From contig PXUA01000019.1 of the NCBI GenBank assembly GCA_003022435.1, forward strand, positions 283,427-315,426: DNA of 32,000 nt. Reading direction: 5' to 3'. A model generated the notes under the pieces. It searched no databases. It was given only the letters and a program-made list of their open reading frames with translations, and was not told the DNA's origin. Positions 2,246 through 29,674 of the stretch are shown one piece after another. Source of the stretch: Bacteroidetes bacterium SW_9_63_38 (lineage in GTDB: Bacteria > Bacteroidota > Rhodothermia > Rhodothermales > Salinibacteraceae). Positions within the stretch are counted from its first letter, which is position 1; each line of letters opens with the position of its first letter. The translations under genes and the position numbers were made by a program.

Positions 2246-2341
2246 TGCAGCTTCAACTGGTCCGTTGTGCAATCGAGATACCTCAAGCTGGAGCGTGGAG
2301 CAATAGCAAACTGCTTTCCCCAAAAGATCGTTTGAAGCTGC
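2243..2341 (+). repeat. MITE-like inverted-repeat element, copy A (97-bp core 2245-2341)
   Basis: 2245-2277 is identical to 20222-20254, and 2278-2341 matches 20278-20341 at 63/64 positions. The termini GTGCAGCTTCAA and TTGAAGCTGC are inverted repeats. No ORF. The left end overlaps the thrA TAG stop. Confidence 0.8.
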
Positions 2342-2396
2342 GATTAACCACTCGAACAACGGATCAGAGGAGGCAACGGTCTTTGCGCCCGCCTCC

Positions 2397-3308
2397 ATGG
2401 GCAACGTGGCCGTGGGCTACGACGTGCTGGGAAGCGTTCTCAACTGCATGGGGGACCGGGTCACGGTGCGGCGGCTGGACGATCCGACGGTGCGGATTGG
2501 GCGCATCACGGGCCGCGTGCCGGATCTGCCGACGGCGCCCGCCGACAACACAGCCACGAAGGCGCTGCTCGATTTGCAGGCGGCACACCACCTCGACACC
2601 GGGTTCGAGGTGGATATCGAAAAGGGCATCCCGCTCGGGTCGGGCCTCGGGGGATCGGCGGCCTCGGCGGTCGGGGCGGTCGTAGCGGCGGCGGAGCTTC
2701 TGCCCGGAGAGTGGACGGAGGAGGATCTGCTTCCGCACGCGCTGATCGGAGAGGAGGTGGCCAGCGGGGCGATTCACCCGGACAATGTGGCGCCCTGCCT
2801 GTACGGCGGGCTGGTACTCACGCGCGAGATCGATCCGCCCGACGTGGTCCCGATTCCGGTTCCCGAGAGCATTCAGTGTGTGCTCGTGCGCCCCGATCAG
2901 GTGATCGCTACTCGCGATGCTCGCGCGTGCCTGCCGACCGAGCTTCCGCTTCCCGAATCGGTGCGCCAAACCGCCCACCTGGGCGCGTTCGTGGCGGGAT
3001 GCTACCGCAACGACATCGGGCTGATCGGCCGGTCCCTCCGCGACCTCATCGTGGAGCCGCACCGGGCGGGCCTCGTGCCCGGCCTCGCGGAGGTGCAGTC
3101 GGCGGCGATGGAGGCGGGAGCGCTCGGATGCTCGCTCTCCGGAGCGGGGCCGACCCTGTTTGCCTGGAGCGAAGCCGGAACCACGACCGAGGCGGTCCGC
3201 GAGGCCATGGTGTCGGCGTTCGCGGGGCACGACATTCCGACGGAAGCGTGGGTCTCGCGGATTCCGGAGCAGGGGGCGCGGATCGTGGAGCCTACGCCGG
3301 CGCAGTAA
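2397..3308 (+). CDS. thrB: homoserine kinase (GHMP kinase family)
   Basis: GHMP motif PLGSGLGGSAASAV is present, and the N-terminal GNVAVGYDVLG matches the ThrB consensus. The conserved first strand (VFAPAS) is encoded in-frame upstream of the first ATG, at 2379-2396. The real start is therefore probably non-canonical, near 2376 (see findings). Confidence 0.9.
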   Translation: MGNVAVGYDVLGSVLNCMGDRVTVRRLDDPTVRIGRITGRVPDLPTAPADNTATKALLDLQAAHHLDTGFEVDIEKGIPLGSGLGGSAASAVGAVVAAAELLPGEWTEEDLLPHALIGEEVASGAIHPDNVAPCLYGGLVLTREIDPPDVVPIPVPESIQCVLVRPDQVIATRDARACLPTELPLPESVRQTAHLGAFVAGCYRNDIGLIGRSLRDLIVEPHRAGLVPGLAEVQSAAMEAGALGCSLSGAGPTLFAWSEAGTTTEAVREAMVSAFAGHDIPTEAWVSRIPEQGARIVEPTPAQ

Positions 3309-3363
3309 GTCGGCTTCCGAGGAACGAAACCTGCCGCCGCAGATGAGTATGGGTTGTCTCGCT

Positions 3364-3391
3364 TTACGTTGAACGTTTGAACGTTGTACGT
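3364..3391. repeat. CGTT array with 7-8 nt period (4 units)
   Basis: ttACGTTgaACGTTtgaACGTTgtACGT has CGT at 3367, 3374, 3382 and 3389. It lies between the convergent thrB and xseB genes. Confidence 0.6.
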
Positions 3392-3392
3392 C

Positions 3393-3590
3393 CTAGTCAT
3401 CGCTGATCGAGAGCTCACTCACGCGCTGCTCCGCGTCGTTCAGGCGAGAGAGGCACTCGTTGGCGAGCTCGACCCCTTCCTCATAGGTATCCAGCGCTTC
3501 TCCCAGGGAGGGGGGATCGTCTTCGAGCGATTCAACGATCTCTTCGAGTCGGTTGAGGGCGTCTTCAAAAGAGTGGTTGTCGGTGGCCAT
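3393..3590 (-). CDS. xseB: exodeoxyribonuclease VII small subunit
   Basis: 65-aa product with the typical XseB sequence FEDALNRLEEIVESLEDDPPSLGEALDTYEEGVELANECLSRLNDAEQRV. ATG at 3590. Confidence 0.93.
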   Translation of the reverse strand: MATDNHSFEDALNRLEEIVESLEDDPPSLGEALDTYEEGVELANECLSRLNDAEQRVSELSISDD

Positions 3591-3825
3591 AGGGCGAGTC
3601 GATTCGTTGGGATGTGCGGAATATGAGAGGTAGGGCAGCGGCGGCGGTTTGTCAAGCGTCGCGGGGCGTTTCTGCCGTTTTGCACAGATCCGTCACCTTC
3701 GGTCCCGGACCTGTCCAAATGATCTGAAAATTCGGCGTGGCGGTGAGGGCGGGTGGACGCTTTCAGGGGTGCTCGCTACGTTCAAGTATACATGCTTTCA
3801 TCTTATTGTCAGACTACCGACCCTC

Positions 3826-4599
3826 ATGGATCTCGGATTACAGGATCGCGTTGCCATCGTCACCGGTGCCAGTCAGGGCATTGGCAAGTATATCGCTCAG
3901 GCCCTCGCGCGTGAAGGATGTGACATTGCCATCTGTGCCCGCACCGAGTCGGATCTGGAGGACGCAGCGGCGGAGATTGAAGACGAGGGGACTGAGGTGT
4001 TGGCGCTGCCGATGGATGTGACCGACGACGGCGAGCCGGAGCGGCTGGTGGAGGAAACCGCCGAGAAATTCGGCCGCATCGATACGTACGTCGGCAACGT
4101 GGGCGGCAACCGGCGCGGTGATTTTGAGGAGCTGTCCGACGAGGACTGGGAGGACCTCATCAATCTCAACTTTATGTCGCACGTCCGCGTCAGCCGGGCG
4201 GCCATTCCGCACATGAAGGAGGTGGACGGCGCCTCGATTTGCTACATTTCGTCCATCTTCGGGCGGGAACTGGGCGGTGCGGGCCTGTCGCTCTACAACA
4301 CCACCAAGTCGGCGCTCATCAGCGTGAGCAAGGTCATGGCCCAGGAGCTGGCGCCGGAGATTCGCGTAAATAGCGTCGCACCGGGCTCGATTCGGTTTCC
4401 GGGCGGCAGCTGGGATCAGCGTGTGAAGGAGAAGCCGGACGAGATGGAGGAATTCGTCCGGGAGAACATCGCCATTGAGCGGTTTGGGCGCGCGACGGAG
4501 GTGGCCGACGCCGTGACCTTCCTCTGCTCCGAGCGGGCCAGCCTCATCACCGGTTCGTGCATCAACGTGGACGGGGGCCAGTCGCACTCGCTCATTTAG
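3826..4599 (+). CDS. short-chain dehydrogenase/reductase (classical SDR, FabG-like)
   Basis: TGASQGIG cofactor motif, YNTTK (YxxxK) catalytic motif and NSVAPG. I chose the ATG at 3826 (MDLGLQDRVAIVTGAS) because the 59-codon upstream extension of the ORF track has no SDR-like sequence. Confidence 0.9.
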   Translation: MDLGLQDRVAIVTGASQGIGKYIAQALAREGCDIAICARTESDLEDAAAEIEDEGTEVLALPMDVTDDGEPERLVEETAEKFGRIDTYVGNVGGNRRGDFEELSDEDWEDLINLNFMSHVRVSRAAIPHMKEVDGASICYISSIFGRELGGAGLSLYNTTKSALISVSKVMAQELAPEIRVNSVAPGSIRFPGGSWDQRVKEKPDEMEEFVRENIAIERFGRATEVADAVTFLCSERASLITGSCINVDGGQSHSLI

Positions 4600-4692
4600 G
4601 TGTGTGTGTACGTTGTGGGTTGTGCGTTGTGGGTTGTGCGTTTTTGCGTTGTACGTTGTTACGTTGAGCGTCTGCACGTTGAGCGTTGCGGG
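4600..4692. repeat. degenerate CGTTG heptad/octad tandem array (about 11-13 units)
   Basis: (GT)5 is followed by CGTTGTGGGTTGTG repeated twice perfectly (4611-4638). The array continues as CGTTTTTG CGTTGTA CGTTGTTA CGTTGAG CGTCTGCA CGTTGAG CGTTGCG. CG positions are 4611, 4625, 4639, 4647, 4654, 4662, 4669, 4677 and 4684. Confidence 0.75.
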
Positions 4693-4889
4693 GGTAGGGA
4701 TTTGGTCACTGGTTCGGCGAGGACCGTCATCGGTGCGTGCGAGGGCAAACGCGGAACTGGGATGTTCACAAACGCCCCAACGCACATACACCCATACTCC
4801 TATACCGACATACATTTCACGGCACAGTGGGGAGGAGAGGCCCATGAGCCGCCCCCTTTGTGGAAGAGCCGTACCTGTCCCGGCCGCCC

Positions 4890-7697
4890 CTATCCTTCGC
4901 AGTTCTTGCAGCCCAGAATGTCGCGGGAGAAGGCCTGGGCGGCATTCACGCCGTGCTGGTAGTACAGGCTCTTGATGCCCGTTTTCCAGGCTTCGATGTA
5001 CAGACGGTTGACGTCCTTGGCGGGCGTTGCGTTCGGGTCGATGGCCAGGTTCAGCGACTGCGACTGGTCGATGTGGGTTTGCCGGGCGGCCGCCTGATTG
5101 ATGATGGCCATCTGGCTGATTTCGCTGAACGTCTTGAACACCTCCTTCTCGTGCTCGCTGAGAATGTCGAGGTGTTGCACCGAGCCGTCGCGCAGGGCAA
5201 TTTGCTCCCACACCTCGTCGGTGTTTTTGCTCTTCTCGTCCAGCAGGGCTGTCAGGTACGGATTCTTGTAGGTGACCTTCATCTTGGCCCGGTCCTGCAC
5301 GTGGTAGTTGCTCTTGATGGGCTCGATGGACGGGCTCACCTGCCCCAGGATGAAGCTGCTCGACTTGGTGGGGGCCACCGCCATGGTCGTCGCGTTGCGC
5401 CGTCCGCAGCCCTCCAGGACCGGCGGCTCGCCGAACCGGTCGGCCAGCTCCGCAGAGGCCGCGTACGACCGGTCCTTGATCGTCTTGGCGATGTCCGCGC
5501 CGATCGTCGTGGCCTCCGCCGACTCGAACGGGATCATATTCGACTGCAGGTAGGAGTGCCAGCCCAGGATGCCGATCCCGATCGCTCGGTGCCGCTTCGC
5601 AAAGCGAACGGCCCGGTCCATATGGGCCATGCCCTCGGCGCCCTCAATGAACTCTTGCATCACTGCGTCGAGGAAGTAGGTGAGCGTCTCCACCGCGTTG
5701 GTGTGCTTCCACTCGTCGAAGTGGAGGGCATTCATCGACGACAGGCAGCAGACAAAGCTCTCGTCCGGGCCGCATGGAAGCGCGATTTCGGAGCAGTTGA
5801 ACGTCAATACCCCCTGCGAGACAAACACGCTTTCGTCCGTTTCCGTCGTTGGGCAGTAAACGGGCTCGGTGCCTACATGCTCAATCTCAACAACCTCGTA
5901 GGCTTTCTTCGTATTGTCGCGGTAGTGGCGCCTCTCAAGTTCAATGCCCTTTCGGCTGAGAAAGCCAGTATACTTCTCGATTTCCAGGGCGGCGTTTTTG
6001 TTGCCGACGATGAGCCGGTAGCAGTCCTGGACTCTGTATTCGTCGTTCCTGCCTTTTCCGTTTGGAAGCATTTTCGAACCTCCCTCTTGGAGAAGGCGGA
6101 TCTGAGAACTGAGCCCGAGATTGTTGAAAAGAAGCTGAAGCTCCTGGAGAAAGTCGCGGTCGACATCGGCATAATTGATCTGGATCGGGTTGCCCCGGCT
6201 TTCAGACATGTGGACGCTGCCGTCTGCAACAAGCAGACCGCGCACATACGACCACTGCGTGTCCTCGTCGGATTCCCAGATCCATTCAGGTACGGCGCCT
6301 TTTTCGAAACCGAGCTTTGTGAGAGCGGTGGTGCTTAGACGCTTTTTGGCGTCGTTGGAGTGGCTCGCTTGTACGTCGCGGAACGTCGGGACTTCGCGGC
6401 GACGGGTCGCGGTCGTGGTTCCGTGCTGATTCGAGACTGCGTAGGTGTCGAAGCCATGCGTCTCGTAGACGTGATCGAGGGGGGTCTCCACCTCTTCCAC
6501 AATGTCGAAGTCCGACTCCCACACGTCGATCATCTTCCGATCCTCGTGCTGGGTGCCGTCAGATTGCCATAGGCCGAGCAGAAACGCTTCATCCGGCATG
6601 TGACGGTTCCCGAACAAGCCCTTGTTCTTCTGAATGACGATGCGATCCCCAATCTCGAGGTTTTGGGCGTCCTCTCGGTGATATTCGCCCTGGCCGTCAT
6701 AAACGGGAATTCCATGATAGGCCGTCACTTTTTGCTCCAGTCCGTTGTCGAGTGTGATCCGGTACACATCTGCCTCCTCCTCGCGAAGCTTCATCCGTGA
6801 GGCGCTGATCGCCTTTTCTCCGTCGAAGAGCGTAAGGGCGTCTCCTTCTTCGTGCAGGTCCTCCGCCGTCTTGTACCCACGGTCGGTGACGACACGCTGA
6901 TCGCCGGCAAGACAGAGGTTGCTCGCGTGCACGTCGTAGCCCTGGTCCTTGTAGACCTGCGGCCGCCCGTCCTGCACGTTGCCGCGAAAAAGAATGTAGG
7001 GGATGCCGAGGTTCATGCGCTGCTCGATCACCCGCGCCCAGAGGTCGCGCTTTTCGGTGTCGCCGTCAATCATCGCTTCCATCCAGTCGTCGCCCACCAC
7101 GACCCCATACATCATGGTCTGGATGGCGTCGCCCTCGGTTTGGATGTTGAGCCACTCCTCGATGTCGGGGTGTTCGATGTCGATGTAGCCGGCGAAGTGG
7201 CCGCGGCGCGTCTCGCCCTGGCTCACGACATTGATCACCGTGTCGAACAGCTGGGCGAAGGGATAGGTGCCGTTGGAGGTGCCGTTGTTGGTAATGGGGG
7301 CGCCGCGGGGGCGGATGTCGCCGAAGTAGCCGCTGGTGCCGCCGCCCACCTTCGTCATCATGCCCACTTCCGCGTGGGTGTCGAGGATGGAGGTCATCGT
7401 ATCCTCAAAATAGGAGCCGAAGCAGGAGATCGGCAGGCCGCGGTCGAGGCCGAAGTTGGCCCACACGGGACTGGCGAGGCTGTAGTAGCCCCGGCTCATG
7501 TACTCGTAGAAGCGGTCGGCAAAGCCGTCGATCTCGAGGATCGACTCGGCGTGCTCGGCAATCTCGCGCACGCGCTCCGTCGGACCGGTGTCGTCGAGCA
7601 GGTAGCCGCGGCGGAGAAACGTTCGGGCATCGTCATTGAGCCAGGCGAAGTCGGTGGAGGAGTCGGTGTGAGGGGCGGAAAGGGTGTCCGGAGACAT
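4890..7697 (-). CDS. nrdA: ribonucleotide-diphosphate reductase alpha subunit, intein-containing (935-aa precursor, about 562-aa spliced extein, no ATP-cone)
   Basis: The extein junction restores the class I active-site motif ASNL|CSEIALP (SNLCxEI). The C-terminal part matches RNR large subunits, with a terminal CKNCEG Cys pair. An R2 gene lies immediately upstream on the same strand. Confidence 0.95.
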   Translation of the reverse strand: MSPDTLSAPHTDSSTDFAWLNDDARTFLRRGYLLDDTGPTERVREIAEHAESILEIDGFADRFYEYMSRGYYSLASPVWANFGLDRGLPISCFGSYFEDTMTSILDTHAEVGMMTKVGGGTSGYFGDIRPRGAPITNNGTSNGTYPFAQLFDTVINVVSQGETRRGHFAGYIDIEHPDIEEWLNIQTEGDAIQTMMYGVVVGDDWMEAMIDGDTEKRDLWARVIEQRMNLGIPYILFRGNVQDGRPQVYKDQGYDVHASNLCLAGDQRVVTDRGYKTAEDLHEEGDALTLFDGEKAISASRMKLREEEADVYRITLDNGLEQKVTAYHGIPVYDGQGEYHREDAQNLEIGDRIVIQKNKGLFGNRHMPDEAFLLGLWQSDGTQHEDRKMIDVWESDFDIVEEVETPLDHVYETHGFDTYAVSNQHGTTTATRRREVPTFRDVQASHSNDAKKRLSTTALTKLGFEKGAVPEWIWESDEDTQWSYVRGLLVADGSVHMSESRGNPIQINYADVDRDFLQELQLLFNNLGLSSQIRLLQEGGSKMLPNGKGRNDEYRVQDCYRLIVGNKNAALEIEKYTGFLSRKGIELERRHYRDNTKKAYEVVEIEHVGTEPVYCPTTETDESVFVSQGVLTFNCSEIALPCGPDESFVCCLSSMNALHFDEWKHTNAVETLTYFLDAVMQEFIEGAEGMAHMDRAVRFAKRHRAIGIGILGWHSYLQSNMIPFESAEATTIGADIAKTIKDRSYAASAELADRFGEPPVLEGCGRRNATTMAVAPTKSSSFILGQVSPSIEPIKSNYHVQDRAKMKVTYKNPYLTALLDEKSKNTDEVWEQIALRDGSVQHLDILSEHEKEVFKTFSEISQMAIINQAAARQTHIDQSQSLNLAIDPNATPAKDVNRLYIEAWKTGIKSLYYQHGVNAAQAFSRDILGCKNCEG
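5796..6914 (-). mobile_element. intein (373 aa) with LAGLIDADG homing-endonuclease domain, inserted at the RNR catalytic Cys
   Basis: It starts at CLAGDQRVV (Cys262; codon 6914-6912 is aca, reverse complement tgt). It contains a block-B TxxH (VTAYHG) and two dodecapeptide motifs, FLLGLWQSDG and YVRGLLVADG. It ends at VLTFN, followed by the +1 Cys (CSEIALP). G+C is visibly lower than in the flanking extein DNA. Confidence 0.9.
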
Positions 7698-7761
7698 AGT
7701 AGGTGTATGGGACCAGCAGAGAGAAGGAGAAGGAAGAGAGAATCCGGCGTGGGGGAGGAGA

Positions 7762-8733
7762 CTAGAAGAGATCGTCGCTGCTTACGCTCTGGGTCATCTT
7801 CGAGTAGCTAGTGCTCCGCTTCGAGAAGAAATCGTTGCCCTTCGTCAGCAGGATTTCTTCGTAGAACCAGCGGGTCTCGTCGCGCCGCTCCGGGTCGACC
7901 TCAAAGATCGGGGACACGTCCACATTGCGGAGCGATTCGTTAAACTTGTCGCGCAGGAAGGCATCGACGACCGGGCGCGGGAGAAAGTCCAGGTCGCCGT
8001 CCGCAAAAATCCAGTCGAGCACATTCTGCTCGGCCCGATACGCCCGGCGGCAGGCCGCCTGGACCTCCTGTTCAAAGTCGTCGTCGAACCACGCGGGGTG
8101 CTCCTCGCGGATCACGTCGATCAGCTCCACCCCGAAGAGGCCGTGGATCTGCTCCTCCTTGGAGGTGGCCTCGACGGCGTTGGCGACGCCTTTGAATTTC
8201 TTCTCGTATTTGTCGAACGAGAGCATGATGAGGAACTGGCTGAACAGGCTCACATGCTCGATGAAAATCGAGAACAGCAGGATCGAGAATGCGAAGTCGC
8301 GGTCGGCGCCCTCCTCGGGACCGAGGTAGTCATTCAGGTATTCGATGCGATCGGCAATCGCGGGAATTTGTTCGACGCGTTCAAACTCGTCGTTGAGGCC
8401 CAGCAGGTCGAGGAGATGGGAGTAGGCGTCCATGTGGCGCACCTCCGACTCGGCGAAGGTCATGCCCACAGCCCCGATCTCGGGCTTCGGCATGCGGTGG
8501 TAGAGGTCCGCCCAGAACGTTTTGACGGACACCTCGATCTGGGCGATGGCGAGCATCGTCTTGGTGATGACGCTGCGCTCCATGTCGGTGCAGTTGACGT
8601 GGAAGTCCTGCACGTCGCCCTCGAAGTTGAACTCGTCGTGGACCCAGTAGGAGTGCCGGATGGCGTCCTTGAAGTCCAGCAGGTGCGGGTACTCGTACGG
8701 CTTCAGGTTGATGCGCTCGTCGAAAATGCTCAT
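7762..8733 (-). CDS. nrdB: ribonucleotide reductase beta (R2) subunit
   Basis: Ferritin-like di-metal protein with an ExxH motif and Tyr four residues after the His (ESEVRHMDAYSH). A second EExxH motif is EEQIHG, and the acidic C-terminal tail SSDDLF is typical of R2 binding to R1. The start is ATG at 8733 (MSIFDERINLKPYEYP). The 67-codon upstream extension in the ORF track overlaps the riboswitch expression platform. Confidence 0.93.
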   Translation of the reverse strand: MSIFDERINLKPYEYPHLLDFKDAIRHSYWVHDEFNFEGDVQDFHVNCTDMERSVITKTMLAIAQIEVSVKTFWADLYHRMPKPEIGAVGMTFAESEVRHMDAYSHLLDLLGLNDEFERVEQIPAIADRIEYLNDYLGPEEGADRDFAFSILLFSIFIEHVSLFSQFLIMLSFDKYEKKFKGVANAVEATSKEEQIHGLFGVELIDVIREEHPAWFDDDFEQEVQAACRRAYRAEQNVLDWIFADGDLDFLPRPVVDAFLRDKFNESLRNVDVSPIFEVDPERRDETRWFYEEILLTKGNDFFSKRSTSYSKMTQSVSSDDLF

Positions 8734-8905
8734 GGAAGGAGAGGCTGGGGAAGGCAGATATCGAAGAACCAGTCGGGGGGCATCAGACGACGGAGGGCGG
8801 GGCACGCGAGGCCAAGTGAAGGCCGCTGGGAGAATACCAGCAGGAATAATCCGGTCGGCCACGACGGGCATCGGGACGAAAACGATGGGACATACGGTGC
8901 TCCGG

Positions 8906-8950
8906 AAATAGAAAAGACCTTCGGATGCAATCACGCATCACGAAGGCGGG
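8906..8950 (-). terminator. intrinsic terminator (probable riboswitch expression platform)
   Basis: The - strand RNA reads GCCTTCGTGATGC-gtgatt-GCATCCGAAGG followed by tCTTTTCTATTT. It sits between the B12 aptamer and the nrdB start. Confidence 0.6.
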
Positions 8951-18193: not shown

Positions 18194-19111
18194 ATGTCCC
18201 TTCCTTCCCAGGTTACCCTGTGTGATGTCGGGCCGCGCGACGGCTTTCAGTTTGAGGAGCAGTTTATTCCGACGGAGGTGAAGGTCGAGATTATCACGGC
18301 CCTTGCCGAGGCGGGACTGCCGCGCATTCAGGTGACATCCTTCGTGCATCCGGAGTGGGTGCCGCAGATGCGAGACGCCGAGGCAGTCTGCGATCAGTTG
18401 CCGGCGCGGGACGACGTGATCTACGCGGGACTGGCCCTAAACCGAAAGGGCCTGGAGCGGGCCGTCGACGCCGGTCTCTCGCAGGTCGACCTTTCGATTG
18501 CCACCCACGACGAGCACAGCCGTGACAACGCCAACGTGACGGTGGAGACGGCGGTGCAGGAGGCAGAAGAGATGATCCGGTACGCTCACAAGCGGGGCGT
18601 CGACGTGCAGATGGGGTTCCAAACCGTGTTTGGATACCGAGCGCCCGGGGATACGCCGCTGCATCAAGTGCGTGAGATGAGCCAGCACTTTGCCGACATG
18701 GGCGTGGAGTCGCTTTCGCTGGCCGACTCGACGGGGCTCGCCAATCCGGAGATGATAAAGACCCGTGTGCGGGCGGTGCAGGACGGATCGGGGGACGTGC
18801 CGCTGGTACTTCACCTGCACGACACGCGCGGGCTGGGGCTCGCGAACGTCTACGCAGCCCTGCAGTGCGGCGTGCGACGATTCGACACATCCCTCGCCGG
18901 GATGGGGGGGTGCCCGTTTATCGAAGGCGCGACGGGCAACATTGCCACAGAGGATACGGTCTACCTGCTTGACGAACTGGACATTGAGACCGGCATCGAC
19001 CGGATGGCCGTGGGGCAGGTGTCAGGGCGGATTGAGTCGTTCCTCGACAAGCAGTTCCCGGGCACGCTACACCGGCTTCAACAGCGACCGTCGGCGTCCG
19101 GCGGCGACTAA
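18194..19111 (+). CDS. hydroxymethylglutaryl-CoA lyase (HMGL-like aldolase)
   Basis: N-terminal CDVGPRDGFQ motif and the TIM-barrel metal-site segment LHLHDTRGLGLANVYAAL. The ATG at 18194 is preferred over the GTG at 18167. Confidence 0.9.
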   Translation: MSLPSQVTLCDVGPRDGFQFEEQFIPTEVKVEIITALAEAGLPRIQVTSFVHPEWVPQMRDAEAVCDQLPARDDVIYAGLALNRKGLERAVDAGLSQVDLSIATHDEHSRDNANVTVETAVQEAEEMIRYAHKRGVDVQMGFQTVFGYRAPGDTPLHQVREMSQHFADMGVESLSLADSTGLANPEMIKTRVRAVQDGSGDVPLVLHLHDTRGLGLANVYAALQCGVRRFDTSLAGMGGCPFIEGATGNIATEDTVYLLDELDIETGIDRMAVGQVSGRIESFLDKQFPGTLHRLQQRPSASGGD

Positions 19112-19151
19112 CTGCAACGTTGGGAGAGACGCGCCGCGTTTGCTCCGAGAA

Positions 19152-19991
19152 CTATCGGGCTTCCACGTCGGAGTTGAGGGTATCGGCCGGGATGCGTTGG
19201 CCGTCGCGGCTGAAGGGGGCTTCCGTGGCGATGGCTTCCTGCACGCCGTGCCCGCTCGGGATCCAGCGGATGAGTTCCAGCCGTCCGTCGAGGTGCTCCA
19301 CGAGCGCCGTGCAGCTTTCGACCCAGTCGCCGGTATTGACGTAGTGAGTGCCCTCGAAGGTCCGGAGGCGCGGGTGGTGAACGTGGCCGCAGATGACGCC
19401 GTCGTACTCTTCCTCGGCGGCTTCCAGGGCTGCCGTCTCCTCAAAGTCCTCGATGTAGCTGAGCGCCTGTTGGGTCGAGTGTTTCAGGTAGCTGGAGAGC
19501 GACCAGTACGGGAGATCGAATTGCCGACGGATGTGGTTGAAGAGGCGGTCGATCTTCAGAACGCCGACGTAGGCCCAGCCGCCCAGAAATTCGAGCCACT
19601 TCGCGTGCCGGACGACGCCCTCAAACTCGTCGCCGTGGACAGTGATAAATCGGCGTCCGTCGGCGGTGGTATGAACGGCCTTCTCCTGGATGGTGATGCC
19701 GCCGAGTTGCAGGCCGGGATAGTCGCGGGCGACCTCGTCGTGGTTGCCGGGCACGTACGTGACCGTCGTGCTTTTGGCCTTTTCGAGGAGGGCCTGGATG
19801 ACGTCGTTGTGGGAGGACGGCCAGTACCAGGAGCGCTGCAGCGCCCAGCCGTCGAAGATGTCGCCGACAAGGTAGTAGCGGTCGGCCTCGTGGTGGCGAA
19901 GAAAGTCGAGGAGAAACTTTGCCTTCGCCTGAGGGGTCCCTAAATGGATATCCGAGATCCAGATTGTTCGGTAGTGGGTGGTCGGCTCCAT
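19152..19991 (-). CDS. LpxH-family metallophosphoesterase, PlcP-like (this family is often auto-annotated as UDP-2,3-diacylglucosamine diphosphatase)
   Basis: Calcineurin-like phosphoesterase motifs: ISDIHLG, VGDIFDGW, PGNHDE, VHGDEFE and CGHVHHP, plus the family-specific WALQRSWYWPSSHND and NTGDWVESCTALVEH. ATG at 19991 (MEPTTHYRTIWISD). Confidence 0.85.
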   Translation of the reverse strand: MEPTTHYRTIWISDIHLGTPQAKAKFLLDFLRHHEADRYYLVGDIFDGWALQRSWYWPSSHNDVIQALLEKAKSTTVTYVPGNHDEVARDYPGLQLGGITIQEKAVHTTADGRRFITVHGDEFEGVVRHAKWLEFLGGWAYVGVLKIDRLFNHIRRQFDLPYWSLSSYLKHSTQQALSYIEDFEETAALEAAEEEYDGVICGHVHHPRLRTFEGTHYVNTGDWVESCTALVEHLDGRLELIRWIPSGHGVQEAIATEAPFSRDGQRIPADTLNSDVEAR

Positions 19992-20218
19992 GTGGCGGAG
20001 AAAAGCTGTGTCGGCAGCAGTGCAGGGCGAAGCCGTCCAGCGAGGACGGAAGAAACTAGCAGTGGTCGAAAAGACGTACCGTGCCTTCTGTCCCTCCTTT
20101 CCACTGAATCCGGGGATTGACGATAGCTTCACGGAGGCCCCACGGCGTCTGCGAATGCTCGACACTGGGCTCGGCCGGGGACCGTCGCGGGGACCGTCGG
20201 TGTGGGAAAGGAGAGCGG

Positions 20219-20346
20219 CTAGTGCAGCTTCAACTGGTCCGTTGTGCAATCGAGCTTTGGACGGACCTCGTCCGTCCATACCTCAAGCTGGAGCGTGGAG
20301 CAATAGCAAACTGCTCTCCCCAAAAGATCGTTTGAAGCTGCACTAG
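20219..20346 (+). repeat. MITE-like inverted-repeat element, copy B (with nested hairpin module)
   Basis: Perfect 15-bp terminal inverted repeats: CTAGTGCAGCTTCAA (20219-20233) and TTGAAGCTGCACTAG (20332-20346). Relative to copy A it has 23 extra nt (20255-20277), which form TGGACGGAC-ctc-GTCCGTCCA (20258-20278). The right end overlaps the TAG stop (20343-20345, - strand) of the upstream metallophosphoesterase gene. Confidence 0.8.
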
Positions 20347-21173
20347 GCGGGGGCTACGTCGGGAGACGGAACGGAGGAGGCGTCCGGCTGGGTGCCGTCG
20401 CCGGTTGATTGATGTGCGCGCGGGGTAGGCTGGAGGTGGGGGGCAGGCGTTCCGCGTCGAAGCGTGAGACGCCCGTCCGGATGTTCGACGAGGGCTGTGC
20501 AGTTTTCCACCCAGTCGCCTGTGTTGGCGTAGGTGACGTTCCGGATGGGGCGGAGCTCCGGCACGTGAATGTGCCCGCAGACGATGCCGTCCACCTGTTC
20601 GCGGTGGGCCCGGTCGACGACCGCCTGCTCGAAGTCGGCGATGTACTGAACGGCGCGCTTCGTGGTTGTTTTGGCCGCGGCGGCGAGTGACCAGTGGGGC
20701 TTGTCCAGCCAGCGCCGGACGCGGTTGAGGGGACGGTTCAGGGCCAGGAGGCTGCGGTAGGCCCATCCCCCGACCTTGGACAGCCAGCGGGCATTGCGGA
20801 CGACGCCGTCGAACGCGTCGCCGTGCAGCACAAGGAGGCGACGTCCATCGGTGGTGGTGTGGACGGCCTGCTCCTGGATGGTGATGTCCCCGAGCTCCAG
20901 GCCGGGAAACTGGCGGGCAGCTTCGTCGTGGTTCCCGGGAATATAGGTGATCTCGGCGTCCTGCGCCCGGTCGAGCAAGGCCTGCAGCACCTCGTTGTGC
21001 GAGGAGGGCCAGTACCAGGAGCGCTGCAGGGCCCACCCGTCGACGATGTCGCCGACGAGGTAGTAGTGATCGGCCTCGTGGCGGTCGAGAAAGTGCAGAA
21101 GCCCCTCCACCTTCGCGGCGCGGGTGCCGAGGTGAAGGTCGGAGATCCAGATCGTCCGGTATTGGTCGGGCAC
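20343..21173 (-). CDS. LpxH-family metallophosphoesterase, PlcP-like, tandem paralogue
   Basis: Same motif set as 19152-19991 (ISDLHLG, VGDIVDGW, PGNHDE, LHGDAFD, CGHIHVP, NTGDWVENCTALVEH). By eye the two are roughly 60% identical. This copy has a Pro/Thr/Ser-rich C-terminal tail. Confidence 0.85.
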   Translation of the reverse strand: MPDQYRTIWISDLHLGTRAAKVEGLLHFLDRHEADHYYLVGDIVDGWALQRSWYWPSSHNEVLQALLDRAQDAEITYIPGNHDEAARQFPGLELGDITIQEQAVHTTTDGRRLLVLHGDAFDGVVRNARWLSKVGGWAYRSLLALNRPLNRVRRWLDKPHWSLAAAAKTTTKRAVQYIADFEQAVVDRAHREQVDGIVCGHIHVPELRPIRNVTYANTGDWVENCTALVEHPDGRLTLRRGTPAPHLQPTPRAHQSTGDGTQPDASSVPSPDVAPA

Positions 21174-21235
21174 GGGAGCGCGAGGAGCGACGCGGAAGAC
21201 AACGAGAAGCCATCTAACAGGGTATGGAGGCCGCG

Positions 21236-21997
21236 TTACGCCGGAATAAAGTCAGAACGATCAAATCGTTTTGATTCGGGCGGTGCGGCGGCGTCCAGGG
21301 GGTCGAGGGCCGCCGACGGCAGCGGGCCGGACCGGTGGAGCGTGGCTCGGTAGGCATAGCGTCGGGCAACGGGGGTGACCGTCGAGCTCAGATGGTCGCA
21401 ATCGTCCAGGGCACGGAGCGCCGCGACGAGTCCGGGACGCGGATACACGTCGAACAGGGCCAGCCATCGCTGCAGCCCGCCCGCCAGCCAGTCGGGAAGG
21501 GCAGCCTGGTCCCAAAAGTCGACAATGTACAGGCGGCCGTCCGGGGCAAGGTGGCGAAGGGCCGCCCGAAGCGCGACGGGCCAGTCCGGAATCATCGAGA
21601 GCACGTACGAGAAGAAGATGAGGTCGAACGGGCCGTCAGTGCGGAGTTGCTCGCTCGGGGAGAGGTGTTGCGCCACCCCGTGGCCGAGGGTGATCCGCTC
21701 GGTGCAGCCGGTACGATCCAGCTTCGCTCGGGCTGTGGCGAGCATTGAGAGGGAGGCGTCCAGGCCGTACAGGGTGTGCTGGGGCGCACGTTGGTCTAAG
21801 AGGCGTAAGTTACGGGCGGTTCCGCAGCCGATTTCCAGGACAGAGCCGGCGGGCTGCTCGGCAATGTCGTTCAGCATCGGGTCGCGGCCCAGCAGATAGT
21901 ACCGGCGCGTGGCGTCGTAGACGTGACGGGTCCACCGGTACATGTTGCTCATTTTCTGGACCGGATCGCGCGGGGGGGAGGAGGCAGACCGAGACAT
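21236..21997 (-). CDS. btaB: class I SAM-dependent methyltransferase, BtaB-like (start uncertain: 21997 or 21952)
   Basis: SAM-binding motif VLEIGCGTARNL and post-I acidic residue (YGLDAS). It lies directly downstream of a DUF3419/BtaA-like gene, which is the arrangement of the DGTS synthesis pair. Confidence 0.7.
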   Translation of the reverse strand: MSRSASSPPRDPVQKMSNMYRWTRHVYDATRRYYLLGRDPMLNDIAEQPAGSVLEIGCGTARNLRLLDQRAPQHTLYGLDASLSMLATARAKLDRTGCTERITLGHGVAQHLSPSEQLRTDGPFDLIFFSYVLSMIPDWPVALRAALRHLAPDGRLYIVDFWDQAALPDWLAGGLQRWLALFDVYPRPGLVAALRALDDCDHLSSTVTPVARRYAYRATLHRSGPLPSAALDPLDAAAPPESKRFDRSDFIPA

Positions 21998-22086
21998 AGG
22001 GGGAGGCAGAACGGTTGGAGGGCAGCAGGCGACACGGATCGGGCCTATATTCCCGCACTCGAGCGGTGGGGGTCACTTTTGGCCCT

Positions 22087-23319
22087 TCATCCCGCAAGCA
22101 CGTAGAGGTGAAACATGCCGTAGATTGCCGAGCGGTCGCGGGCGTGGAGGGCTTCGGAGCGTTCGCGCTCGTACGTAAACCGGTTCCGAAGAGCATCGGG
22201 CAGGGCCGGTTCGACGACCGAGTGGGGACCGGCGGTGCGGAAAATGATGCGCGTGCCGGGCTCGCCGACGCGCGCGAGCTCGTGCCAGAGGGCGGCAATG
22301 GACTCCGGGTCCATCCAGTCCATTGCATCGAGCAGAACGACGCTGTCAATGCTGCTGTCGGGCTGCTCGGTGAGGACGTCGGTGAGGGCGGCGATGCGGG
22401 TCTCGATGCGGTCGAGGTGGTAGCGGAGTTGCGAGTAATGGGCCTGTTTTAGGTACGGGGGCAGGGCCTGCCGGTGCTCGGTGTCGTACCGGCGCCCGAA
22501 GGCCTGCCAAGCGAAGTAGTTGTCGTGCAGCGGAAAGTCGCAGACAAGGCGTTCGAGCCGGTCGCGGTAGAGGTCGACGATGGAGGTGTCGGCGGCGGCC
22601 GACAGGCTCTGATATTGGCTCAGCGGAATCCCGAAGCTGTAGAGCGTGGCGGGCTGCCGCGCGATGCGACGGACGACGGGATGGTCGAAGAACGGGGCCA
22701 CGCATTCGTCGAAAAACTGCTTCTGCTCCGCGCGGGAGGTGGCGTTGAGAAGCTCTTCCGGGCGTCGGCCCTGTACGAGTCGGGACATCAGGCGTGCAAA
22801 CCCTTGAAAGCGAGCGAGGACGCCGTGCTCGTAGAATCCGTCGTCGAAGGCGTGGATGCGCGGACGACGCAGGCCGCCCCAAGGACGGTCGTCCCAGAAC
22901 TGACGGGCGGTGGCGTCGAGGTGGGGACGCACGTGTCGGCGGTAGGCATCGACGTTTTCCGGCCCGGCCCCCACCCCGAAGAATTGAAAGAATTGATCGT
23001 GGGAGGGGAGGTGTCGAAGCGCCTCGATCTTGAGACGCGTGAGCGCCATGTGGGCGGTGTTCAGGTCCACGGCCAGGATGCGCTCCGGTGCGTGCGTGAG
23101 ATAATTGAGCACGTTGCAGCCGGCCGACGAGATGGTGAGGAGGCGGCTGGTGTCGTCGAGCTGCAGGGCCTCGGCGTCAACGCGCGGATCCTCCCAGATT
23201 TGGGTGTAGACGAGTCCTTGAAACCAGAGCGTGAAGAGGCGTTCGAGCGCGCCGCTCTGGCTAAGGGGCTTGTTCTTGTGAACGGCGCGCTTGAGACGAG
23301 CCACCGTGGAGTCCGACAT
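22087..23319 (-). CDS. btaA: DUF3419 / BtaA-like S-adenosylmethionine:diacylglycerol 3-amino-3-carboxypropyl transferase
   Basis: Signature YTQIWEDPRVDAEAL...LTISSAGCNVLNYL...ILAVDLNTAHMALTRLKIEA...FFQFFG, which is typical of the DUF3419/BtaA family. About 410 aa, as expected for that family. Confidence 0.78.
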   Translation of the reverse strand: MSDSTVARLKRAVHKNKPLSQSGALERLFTLWFQGLVYTQIWEDPRVDAEALQLDDTSRLLTISSAGCNVLNYLTHAPERILAVDLNTAHMALTRLKIEALRHLPSHDQFFQFFGVGAGPENVDAYRRHVRPHLDATARQFWDDRPWGGLRRPRIHAFDDGFYEHGVLARFQGFARLMSRLVQGRRPEELLNATSRAEQKQFFDECVAPFFDHPVVRRIARQPATLYSFGIPLSQYQSLSAAADTSIVDLYRDRLERLVCDFPLHDNYFAWQAFGRRYDTEHRQALPPYLKQAHYSQLRYHLDRIETRIAALTDVLTEQPDSSIDSVVLLDAMDWMDPESIAALWHELARVGEPGTRIIFRTAGPHSVVEPALPDALRNRFTYERERSEALHARDRSAIYGMFHLYVLAG

Positions 23320-23477
23320 GAGAAGCCTCTGGGCCTACGTGAGAGAGCATGGACATCGTGTGCTTTCAACGTAGTGACGCGGGGTTATCTGGCCATTACG
23401 CCCGGATTATCGCTGAGTGACGGTTGGAAGGGGGGATTTGAAAAAGGGAAGGTTTGAACGTGGAAGGAGAAGGGAAA

Positions 23478-24500
23478 TTATTTCAGGAACGTGGAGCGGG
23501 GTTTGAAGACACCGTCCCAGCGGCGCTTTTGGAGCCGCGCCACGGACGGATAGTCGGAGGCCGTGCCGAGGTAGGTGTCGTTCGAGGAGGGGTCCGGATA
23601 GAGCTTGAGGGTGTGCTCTGAGCCGTCACTCAGACGAAGGCGGACCTTGTGGCGCGGATTTTTCAGCTGGTTCGGGGAAGTATGTTCGGCAAACCCGGAA
23701 GCTCGCGGTGAGGCGAGGGTCGTGAGGACAGAGGTGACAGCGTCGGTCGAGAGCGTGTCCCCGTTCGAAAGCCAGGTAGGCGGGCCGGTGGAGGCGGTGT
23801 CCGACGCCACGGCGCGTTGGAGGCTGAACGTGGTGTCGGCCGCGGCACTGTCGCCGGCCGTTGTCAGGTAGATGCGTTGAACGTTGGACTGGGCCGCGCT
23901 CCAGATCGTTTTATTTCGCCAGTCCTCTACGTTCTTGCTCAGCATCGACTCCAGAGAGGCCTCCACGGAGTACACGTCGGGCTGATTCGGCCTCCGGACG
24001 TACGTGACGGAGGTGCCCTGTCGGCGCATCCGCTGCATGGGACTGGTCTTCCCACTGTTTTCCTTGTTTCGACTCTGGAATTCGGTGCGCCCGACGAGGA
24101 GGCTGCCCAGCGTCTCGTCGCCGCTGTCCAGCAGGGTGACGGTGGTGCCGGTCGAGTCGACGCCGTAGCGGGGGTGCTTGTCGGACTGGCGGGCCGCCAC
24201 GGCCTTCACCGAGATGGACGGCAGGGTATTGAGCAGACGTGTGACCGCAGAGGATTGGGCCGGATAAGCGGTTTTCGCCTCGTCCGAACCGACGGTCCAT
24301 CCGCTCTCCGTCTTCTGGAGACGGATCGTGGAGCCGTCGTTCCGAGCAATCCGGACGGCCTTCACCGCACTGGTATCTACGGTGAGAAGCTTGGTCCGGA
24401 AGGAGGCGCCCGACGATCCGCTCCAGCTCCAGGAAGAGGCGACGGCGAGCGCGAGGGTGCCGGCGAAAATGAGGGCCAGCGACTTGGTCGCGTTCGTCAT
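23478..24500 (-). CDS. DUF4340-domain protein (auxiliary component commonly found after GldG-like genes)
   Basis: N-terminal membrane anchor (LALIFAGTLALAVA) followed by repeated beta-rich modules (IRLQKTESGWTV ...). The position after a GldG-like gene is typical. ATG at 24500. Confidence 0.78.
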   Translation of the reverse strand: MTNATKSLALIFAGTLALAVASSWSWSGSSGASFRTKLLTVDTSAVKAVRIARNDGSTIRLQKTESGWTVGSDEAKTAYPAQSSAVTRLLNTLPSISVKAVAARQSDKHPRYGVDSTGTTVTLLDSGDETLGSLLVGRTEFQSRNKENSGKTSPMQRMRRQGTSVTYVRRPNQPDVYSVEASLESMLSKNVEDWRNKTIWSAAQSNVQRIYLTTAGDSAAADTTFSLQRAVASDTASTGPPTWLSNGDTLSTDAVTSVLTTLASPRASGFAEHTSPNQLKNPRHKVRLRLSDGSEHTLKLYPDPSSNDTYLGTASDYPSVARLQKRRWDGVFKPRSTFLK

Positions 24501-28750: not shown

Positions 28751-28993
28751 ACATTACAGCGTTGATTGGAGGCGGGAGGCTCATTTGCCTCCCGGGGATC
28801 CGATTCCCCCGAGAACGAGTGCGAGAATGAGGGAGAGGGAGTGTAGAAGAAGAGTAATCTCGTCCTGAGGAGTTCTTTTTGGGAGCTAAATTGAAGGGGC
28901 GATTGCCTTGAGGCACGGAGCTTCCGAGGATCCATTGGGGACGAATCCGAGTTTGATCATCCCGCTTTTTGTCCCTAAATGTCCAGTTCTGCG

Positions 28994-29233
28994 ATGCCAA
29001 CCTACGAGGCCATTTACGAGAATGGACACCTCGAATGGATCGGGGACGAGCCGACGCCGGGGCGTCATAGGGTACAGGTCCGCGTGCTCGATTCGGAGAC
29101 CAATACGCACGATCGGGACGAGGTGCGACGAGCGTTCGAAAAAGCGCGGGGCGCGTGGGGAACGAACAAGTCCCTCGACGAGGTGGAGGCTGAGATACAG
29201 GAGCTTCGGGATGAGTGGGATCGTTTGAATTGA
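28994..29233 (+). CDS. DUF104 / AF2212-like antitoxin (VapB-type partner of a PIN toxin)
   Basis: N-terminal YEAIYENGHLEWIGDEP...RVQVRVL matches the AIYENGVxKPL signature of the DUF104 family. It is followed 45 nt later by a PIN gene. The start could instead be at 28979. Confidence 0.72.
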   Translation: MPTYEAIYENGHLEWIGDEPTPGRHRVQVRVLDSETNTHDRDEVRRAFEKARGAWGTNKSLDEVEAEIQELRDEWDRLN

Positions 29234-29278
29234 AAGTGACGATTTCCTGATGGTATCCAGACGCGTGAGGTTCGGGGT

Positions 29279-29674
29279 ATGCATCTTTTCGACAGCAACA
29301 TTCTCATCTATCGGCTCAACGATGTCCTGCCGCCCACTGCTTCGAGGCGAGCAGAGAGACGAGCGGCGGAAGGTGCATTCGTTTCCGTCGTGACCCGTAT
29401 CGAGGTGCTTGGATATTCCCACCAAACGCCGGAACAACGGCAGCGTGCGTCTGACTTCCACGAGTTTTTCGATGAGCTTCCACTCCGAGAGCCCGTCGTT
29501 CATTCGGCGATTCAGGTCCGACAGCGTCGGTCGATTCGGCTCGGAGACGCGATTATCGCGGCGACGGCTCTGGTGCACGATTTATCACTCGTAACCCGAA
29601 ATACGGACGACTTTGCGTGGATTGACGACCTTTCTCTCATCAATCCGTTTGACCGTGGCAAGACCGATGAGTGA
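29279..29674 (+). CDS. vapC: PIN-domain ribonuclease toxin
   Basis: MHLFDSNILIY (first acidic residue), TRIEVL, LGDAIIAATAL and LVTRNTDDF together give the classic VapC motif set. Confidence 0.88.
   Translation: MHLFDSNILIYRLNDVLPPTASRRAERRAAEGAFVSVVTRIEVLGYSHQTPEQRQRASDFHEFFDELPLREPVVHSAIQVRQRRSIRLGDAIIAATALVHDLSLVTRNTDDFAWIDDLSLINPFDRGKTDE

Follow-up and report, generated by a model that had tools for sequence, protein, structure and literature searches.

A predicted PlcP/BtaAB membrane-lipid remodelling cluster with a candidate Pho-type operator in the halophilic Salinibacteraceae

The stretch of DNA analysed here, referred to as the window, comprises 32,000 nucleotides of Bacteroidetes bacterium SW_9_63_38, a member of the Salinibacteraceae (assembly GCA_003022435.1, contig PXUA01000019.1, positions 283,427 to 315,426). 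It carries a minus-strand gene cluster predicted to release diacylglycerol from phospholipids and to convert it into diacylglyceryl-trimethylhomoserine (DGTS), a betaine lipid. A sequence-only reading had placed four co-directional open reading frames (ORFs) on this strand, and all of them are present. The genes, and the conserved non-coding elements that flank them, are as follows.

22087-23319, minus strand: btaA-like gene (410 aa), predicted S-adenosylmethionine (SAM):diacylglycerol 3-amino-3-carboxypropyl transferase, from its PF11899 match and its similarity to rhizobial BtaA

21236-21997, minus strand: btaB-like gene (253 aa), predicted diacylglycerylhomoserine N-methyltransferase, from its similarity to Sinorhizobium meliloti BtaB

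20343-21173, minus strand: plcP-C (276 aa), predicted PlcP-type intracellular phospholipase C, the faster-evolving paralogue

19152-19991, minus strand: plcP-D (279 aa), second predicted PlcP paralogue, the resident copy adjoining a convergent HMG-CoA (3-hydroxy-3-methylglutaryl-CoA) lyase gene

23384-23409, minus strand: triple direct repeat TAATC-N6-TAATG-N6-ATAAC (TAAY at an 11-bp period), candidate OmpR/PhoB-type regulator site

23366-23373, minus strand: TACGTTGA, candidate -7/-10 promoter element; the repeats lie 10 nt upstream of it and the btaA ATG 46 nt downstream

20064-20132, minus strand: conserved non-coding block GTGAAGCTATCGTCAATCCCC-N9-GGAAAGGAGGGACAGAAGGCACGGTAC, about 70 nt in the plcP-C/plcP-D spacer, presumed regulatory region of plcP-D

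The intergenic gaps measure 89 bp between btaA and btaB, 62 bp between btaB and plcP-C and 351 bp between plcP-C and plcP-D. The convergent HMG-CoA lyase gene lies 40 bp downstream of plcP-D and, as the earlier reading had correctly stated, 158 bp separate btaA from a DUF4340 gene upstream. For btaB, an alternative start at 21952 would give a protein of 238 aa, while the plcP-D ORF can be extended to 20279, the start at 19991 being backed by orthologues and nucleotide conservation. The high G+C content noted earlier was measured at 0.62-0.66 across the cluster region, and the nearest named relatives among the matches listed are Salinibacter sp. 10B and Salinivenus metagenome-assembled genomes (MAGs).

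The assignment of the first gene to the DUF3419/BtaA family was borne out by a search with hidden Markov model profiles, in which the product gave a full-length match to PF11899 (E 1.9e-104; residues 30-406 on profile positions 7-383 of 385). Against the S. meliloti btaA locus, this BtaA-like protein shows 45.1% identity with 96% of the query aligned, and against Rhizobium leguminosarum BtaA 46.5%, query coverage being 96-98% across the rhizobial pair. The S. meliloti reference genes were taken from a 3.7-Mb replicon in PLSDB, evidently the chromosome, and btaA of strain Ak57 was matched in two pieces. Similarity is full-length and collinear, and the motifs SSAGCNVLNYL and LLDAMDWM are common to the rhizobia and the halophile clade. 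The btaB product contains class I SAM methyltransferase domains (Pfam) and is 39% identical over 211 aa (E 2e-46) to S. meliloti BtaB, for which the gene immediately downstream of S. meliloti btaA served as reference; the N-terminal segment MYRxxRxxYDxTRxYYLxGRD lies inside this match. In S. meliloti and Rhodobacter sphaeroides, the route to DGTS through BtaA and BtaB is well established, and PhoB controls the sinorhizobial genes (PMC3972451; PMC3596328). NCBIfam has no models for BtaA or BtaB and hence yields no equivalog call for either protein. Under the KEGG Orthology (KO)-based annotation of the Joint Genome Institute (JGI), relatives of both proteins with 65-86% identity are already named as DGTS enzymes, and BtaA relatives with 80-86% identity carry the BtaA enzyme name.

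In 78 of the 80 species loci among the matches listed from species-representative genomes, the gene immediately after BtaA is BtaB-like, a pairing which, together with the identity to S. meliloti BtaB, supports the view that the methyltransferase is the BtaB-like partner of BtaA. The BtaA-BtaB loci among these listed matches span Planctomycetota, Verrucomicrobiota, Acidobacteriota, Alphaproteobacteria, Gammaproteobacteria and others. Identity between the halophile BtaA clade and the remaining species representatives, again among the matches listed, drops from 80% to 55%. A plasmid of Chondrinema litorale (Cytophagales; L009, 4947-6783) carries a 'BtaA family protein' and a methyltransferase, the former being 28% identical to the window BtaA. 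Because Planctomycetota and others reach about 55% among the matches listed, this low value hints that the Salinibacteraceae btaAB genes may not be of a Bacteroidota type.

The products of plcP-C and plcP-D are calcineurin-like metallophosphoesterases whose best NCBIfam matches are LpxH models, far under the cut-offs: 46.1 and 43.4 bits, respectively, against 134 for NF003743, and 37.6 and 31.2 bits against 190.35 for TIGR01854. The characterised PlcPs of S. meliloti and Pseudomonas aeruginosa, with 38-55 bits on LpxH models, are likewise sub-threshold. As references we used the S. meliloti gene beside sinR/sinI, the only LpxH-like gene in the 3.7-Mb replicon, and a P. aeruginosa gene that adjoins a family 1 glycosyltransferase (GT1) gene and cyaB, which is the PA3219-PA3218 arrangement (PMC8528852). 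S. meliloti PlcP is 52% identical to the plcP-C product and 54% to that of plcP-D, and the PA3219-type PlcP is about 47% identical to both; in global alignments, identity to both PlcP references is 47-48%, versus 23-27% to Escherichia coli LpxH. The two characterised PlcPs are reported to be 46% identical (PMC8528852), or 44% in our own alignment, so that the window proteins, at 47-54%, are as close to them as they are to each other.

The metal-binding and catalytic residues point in the same direction. They are D12, H14, D42, N81, H82, H117, H201 and H203 in the plcP-C product and D14, H16, D44, N83, H84, H119, H203 and H205 in that of plcP-D, a pattern that includes the GNHD histidine and is identical to that of the S. 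meliloti and P. aeruginosa PlcPs, with all seven metal-binding positions intact. Okada et al. described the replacement of the catalytic histidine of metallophosphoesterases by Arg80 in LpxH of all species, where this residue, within the GNRD motif, binds the phosphate of lipid X (PMC5016852). The corresponding position is histidine in both window proteins (H82 and H84) and in all PlcPs aligned. The sequence-only reading had also attributed two segments, WxLxRSWYWPxxHN and NTGDWVESCTA, to both phosphoesterases. The first, as WALQRSWYWPSSHN, does occur in both; the second is exact in the plcP-D product, while that of plcP-C has NTGDWVENCTA, with one substitution. S. meliloti PlcP has both segments, whereas E. 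coli LpxH has neither.

In a bootstrapped neighbour-joining tree, the PlcP clade stands apart from LpxH at 99%, the two window proteins falling outside genuine LpxH, and the Salinibacteraceae sequences, all in a single clade (98.5%), are placed among the characterised PlcPs. The LpxH reading was rejected because two defining LpxH features fail in these proteins, in addition to the evidence from identity and the tree. By these comparisons, both phosphoesterases are of the PlcP type and not LpxH, which agrees with the grouping proposed earlier from the letters. Public records name window-type, S. meliloti and P. aeruginosa PlcPs 'UDP-2,3-diacylglucosamine diphosphatase', and judged on the same comparisons, this LpxH naming of PlcP-type proteins is a systematic mis-annotation. 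A protein of the gut Bacteroidales species Parabacteroides distasonis, recorded as 'LpxH' (L010, 3983-5904; NZ_OY725790.1), also has histidine at the Arg80 position and scores 45 bits on an LpxH model. Its gene overlaps a downstream glycosyltransferase gene, the pair resembling plcP-agt, and it branches outside the PlcP clade in the neighbour-joining tree.

The complete gene order, consisting of gldAFG-like ATP-binding cassette (ABC) transporter genes, the DUF4340 gene, btaA, btaB, plcP-C, plcP-D and the convergent HMG-CoA lyase gene, is kept in the window, Salinibacter sp. 10B, a Salinivenus MAG (L012) and a metagenome contig (L091), and a second Salinivenus contig begins inside the cluster. 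A btaA-btaB-plcP arrangement with a single plcP and other neighbourhoods was found in Longimonas (L095) and another relative (L096), and btaA-btaB alone in two further relatives (L092 and L097). In L096, which comes from JGI metagenome 3300023197, the three genes (region 1412-8876) adjoin genes for a patatin, two PlsC-like acyltransferases, a FeeM-like protein and a DedA/VTT protein, and the region is, as far as its gene content indicates, a larger lipid-remodelling neighbourhood. Overall, plcP adjoins btaAB in the window, L001, L011, L012, L091, L095 and L096. Among the matches listed, 8 of the 78 loci outside the clade have a PlcP gene no more than 6 kb from btaA, and none has two; the btaA-btaB-plcP module also occurs in Thiothrix and other proteobacteria.

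The 158-bp spacer upstream of btaA is unalignable except for a block at 23366-23409 on the minus strand, which reads TAATCCGGGCG TAATGGCCAGA TAAC, followed after 10 nt by TACGTTGA. The triple repeat is present upstream of btaA in eight loci (the window, L001, L011, L012, L091, L092, L096 and L097) and is conserved down to 62% BtaA identity; its middle repeat is degenerate in Longimonas. Elsewhere in 150 kb of clade DNA, the three-repeat pattern was found zero times on either strand, and it was likewise found in none of 200 shuffles. At the position of the promoter element, Salinibacter sp. 10B has TACATTTG, L011 and L091 have TACGTTGA, and L012 has TAGGTTGG. This candidate -7/-10 element resembles the Bacteroidetes TAnnTTTG element. 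The lone plcP of Salisaeta longa is preceded by two repeats at identical spacing to a TAtaCTTTG element.

In E. coli, the Pho box is an array of 8-bp repeats in tandem, separated by 3-bp linkers, that stops 10 bp short of the -10 element, and Synechocystis SphR requires three repeats with the core CTTAACCT (PMC1906773). The btaA region has three TAAY repeats, 10 nt, and then TACGTTGA as predicted promoter element, a layout which matches these Pho boxes and therefore fits a PhoB-type activator site. By analogy, we infer that the regulator acting at the btaA repeats would be of the PhoB type. A second box between btaB and plcP-C (21235-21249, minus strand; TTAT-N7-TAAC, N10, TACCCTGT), which is box-like in four of five clade genomes and resembles the two-repeat box of the Salisaeta plcP, was considered and is not counted as evidence; it is inseparable from coding constraint because its second TAA is the btaB stop codon and its first repeat lies in the last codons.

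Upstream of plcP-D, the block at 20064-20132 is about 90% conserved in the window, L001, L011, L012 and L091, the remaining spacer being unalignable, and the single D-type plcP of MAG QH_7_62_13 (L093) is preceded by a diverged version of the block. A structured RNA in this spacer was rejected: there was no Rfam match, the folding of the single sequence gave a z-score of -0.41, and six sequences showed no covariation. With both an Rfam match and an RNA-structure signal absent, the block is probably a DNA-level element, such as a promoter or operator of plcP-D. The spacer of 351 bp with its own conserved block makes the four-gene operon of the earlier reading doubtful, although the genes are co-directional as it had claimed. 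Most likely, btaA-btaB-plcP-C form one transcription unit and plcP-D is probably transcribed on its own.

The two PlcP paralogues are 61% identical and form sister groups in the tree, with bootstrap values of 100% for the C-type clade and 99.5% for the D-type. Between clade genomes, plcP-D is 86-94% identical and plcP-C 71-74%. In QH_7_62_13, the single D-type plcP has the same neighbours, the convergent HMG-CoA lyase gene and the M16 peptidase gene, and btaAB are absent there; this position marks plcP-D as the resident copy. A horizontal arrival of plcP-C with btaAB was considered and rejected, since the C and D types are each other's closest relatives within the Salinibacteraceae clade, so plcP-C did not come from another phylum together with btaAB. 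We thus regard plcP-D as a probably older, separately regulated and lineage-specific paralogue of plcP-C. The lone Salisaeta longa plcP groups weakly with the C type. It lies about 2.6 kb from a wax-ester synthase/diacylglycerol acyltransferase gene (L006, 6013-10837), which is a possible alternative sink for diacylglycerol, and btaAB are not nearby.

In the pathway that we propose, the PlcP-type phosphoesterases would hydrolyse glycerophospholipids to diacylglycerol and a phospho-alcohol, BtaA would move the 3-amino-3-carboxypropyl group from SAM onto diacylglycerol to give diacylglycerylhomoserine, and BtaB would methylate its amine three times to yield DGTS, a phosphorus-free zwitterionic lipid. 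The genes btaA, btaB and plcP-C would be transcribed from the promoter behind the three 11-bp-spaced TAAY repeats and induced upon phosphate limitation through the PhoB-family-type activator site, while plcP-D would be under separate regulation. A precedent exists in Phaeobacter, where btaAB adjoin plcP and deletion of plcP abolishes DGTS (Sebastian et al. 2016, PMC4796936). Family membership, active-site residues, phylogeny, gene order and non-coding conservation together make it likely that the region is a PlcP/BtaAB membrane-lipid remodelling module. We are less confident about its control by phosphate, which nonetheless appears the most likely signal given that the three-repeat layout is typical of PhoB-family sites. 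The full scenario is put forward only tentatively: Salinibacteraceae (here Salinibacter sp. 10B, Salinivenus, Longimonas and the source MAG) may make DGTS under a lineage-specific Pho box of three TAAY repeats, with a promoter taken as Bacteroidetes-type and two separately controlled PlcPs as independent routes to diacylglycerol.

Several points weigh against this interpretation. The TAAY core of the repeats differs from the proteobacterial CTGTCAT box, and pst/pho genes are absent from the window and the compared loci. Nearly all occurrences of the repeat belong to orthologous btaA promoters, which leaves the Salisaeta plcP as the sole independent gene. A promoter and terminator scan of 18900-23700, uninformative for this lineage, gave zero sigma-70-type promoters and no intrinsic terminator, its single terminator-like site lying on the wrong strand. 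The neighbour-joining tree has a single true LpxH as outgroup, and a literature search returned no lipidomic report of DGTS in Salinibacteraceae.

The unusual repeat core and the missing pst/pho promoters also speak for an alternative in which the pathway is right and is not a phosphate-starvation response, being driven by another OmpR-family or an unrelated regulator in response to salinity, growth phase or another stress, or being constitutive. The different conserved element of plcP-D would be in line with it, and direct repeats with an 11-bp period are common across the OmpR/PhoB family. We consider this alternative unlikely, though by no means negligible. In every organism studied, plcP and btaAB are induced by phosphate starvation and either depend on PhoB or follow a Pho box (PMC4796936, PMC3972451, PMC3596328, PMC8528852), and three repeats about 10 nt before a -10-like element reproduce the Pho-box layout, the cyanobacterial core CTTAACCT being similar.

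It is improbable that the BtaA/BtaB-like pair yields something other than DGTS, such as a partly methylated homoserine lipid or the product of transfer to a different hydroxylated lipid. The validated enzymes share only 39-46% identity with the pair, the gap from 80% to 55% among the matches listed sets off the halophile BtaA clade, and NCBIfam lacks equivalog models that could settle the name; against these stand the collinear similarity over the full length, motifs invariant from rhizobia to the halophile clade, the strict pairing of BtaA with BtaB and the adjacency, in several contexts, of PlcP as the supplier of diacylglycerol.

For the GldA/F/G-like ABC transporter and DUF4340 protein upstream, the sequence-only reading had speculated on a link to lipid export, which found no functional support, the adjacency being limited to the closest relatives. 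A coupling of cluster and transporter in one long operon, for example for lipid export or flipping, would accord with the shared strand and the short gap, with the order conserved in the window, Salinibacter sp. 10B, Salinivenus L012 and L091, and with the lack of a detected terminator between DUF4340 and btaA. It is very improbable nevertheless, as that gap holds a conserved regulator box and a promoter-like element belonging to btaA itself, btaAB occur without these ABC genes in L092, L095, L096 and L097, and outside the clade no true homologues are adjacent across the 80 species loci among the matches listed. Moreover, the transporter proteins score under the NCBIfam equivalog cut-offs (371.9 versus 402.6 bits for GldA, 210.4 versus 288.5 for GldF and 274.7 versus 389.85 for GldG), and on these scores they are related to Gld proteins and not callable as such. 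Inside the DUF4340 coding region, on the plus strand at 24298-24466, there is a weak Rfam match to scr5239, a Streptomyces small RNA (28.6 bits versus a gathering threshold of 64, E 0.14), which almost certainly arose by chance.

Finally, that the phosphoesterases are genuine LpxH enzymes of lipid A synthesis lying next to btaAB by chance, as might be read from the National Center for Biotechnology Information (NCBI) and JGI names of both proteins and their relatives (UDP-2,3-diacylglucosamine diphosphatase/LpxH) and from a weak but full-length similarity to solved LpxH structures (44 bits or less), can be dismissed as extremely improbable in view of scores of 31-46 bits against cut-offs of 134 and 190, in the same range as characterised PlcPs, of histidine in place of the Arg80 invariant in LpxH (PMC5016852), of an identity to E. 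coli LpxH of about half that to PlcP, and of the 99% bootstrap split.

The closest known arrangement is the type 1 cluster of marine roseobacters, represented by Phaeobacter sp. MED193 (PMC4796936), in which genes of the same three enzyme families lie together, with PlcP as the supplier of diacylglycerol and BtaA and BtaB making DGTS, and a Pho-box-type site is predicted upstream. It differs in that plcP comes first, whereas the order here is btaA-btaB-plcP; in addition, the present cluster has two tandem PlcP paralogues with different upstream elements and another regulator-box core, and it is carried by an extreme halophile of the Salinibacteraceae, not by an alphaproteobacterium. The closest characterised proteins compared are S. 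meliloti PlcP (SMc00171), at 52-54%, and S. meliloti BtaA and BtaB, at 45% and 39%; the segments WxLxRSWYWP and NTGDWVESCTA are held in common with the window PlcPs, but the S. meliloti plcP is a single copy about 390 kb from btaAB, instead of two copies adjoining them. P. aeruginosa PA3219 (formerly 'LpxH2') has, besides about 47% identity, a histidine at the Arg80 position and the same LpxH misnaming, yet it is coupled with the glycosyltransferase Agt1 and with the glycolipids monoglucosyldiacylglycerol (MGDG) and glucuronic acid diacylglycerol (GADG), whereas the window PlcPs lie beside betaine-lipid genes. LpxH of E. coli, P. aeruginosa and Haemophilus influenzae shares the metallophosphoesterase fold and its inserted lid, as well as the seven metal-binding positions; it differs from the window PlcPs by its 23-27% identity, by Arg80 in place of histidine and by lacking the NTGDWVESCTA and RSWYWP segments.

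Two other features of the window lie away from the cluster. At 4890-7697 on the minus strand, a ribonucleotide reductase large subunit gene is split by an intein that includes a LAGLIDADG homing-endonuclease domain (Pfam Intein_splicing at residues 272-634 and LAGLIDADG_3 at 483-570), with the small subunit gene next to it at 7762-8934. On the plus strand, a small ORF of 84 aa (28979-29233) comes just ahead of the gene for a PIN-domain protein (29279-29674, E 3e-13) in a local dip of G+C content to 0.57, and 28979-29674 looks like a VapBC-type toxin-antitoxin pair.

The earlier suggestion that the pathway was undescribed in this lineage holds in so far as a literature search on Salinibacter and relatives turned up neither betaine lipids nor btaAB; the clustering of plcP with btaAB, in contrast, is already known as 'type 1' (PMC4796936), so it is the lineage and not the cluster type that is new. 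Already known, then, are the pathway, the enzymes and their clustering, and KO annotation names BtaA and BtaB in close relatives, whereas the lineage, the tandem and differently flanked PlcP paralogues and the candidate operator are new.

PlcP-type remodelling is known from rhizobia, roseobacters, SAR11, Pseudomonas and methanotrophs, and the charge of the membrane and its lipid composition are considered central to how halophiles such as these adapt to salt. If confirmed, PlcP-mediated remodelling of phospholipids to betaine lipids would reach the extreme halophiles of the Salinibacter group, and it would be the first betaine-lipid pathway, with the first defined Pho-type operator, in this lineage. 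The candidate operator offers a concrete sequence for locating the phosphate regulon in these genomes, and the comparison draws attention to PlcPs misnamed as LpxH in public records, here as well as in S. meliloti, P. aeruginosa and Parabacteroides. Since the cultured Salinibacter sp. 10B carries an identical cluster, the prediction is directly testable, and it suggests that these halophiles may replace membrane phospholipids by a phosphorus-free lipid.

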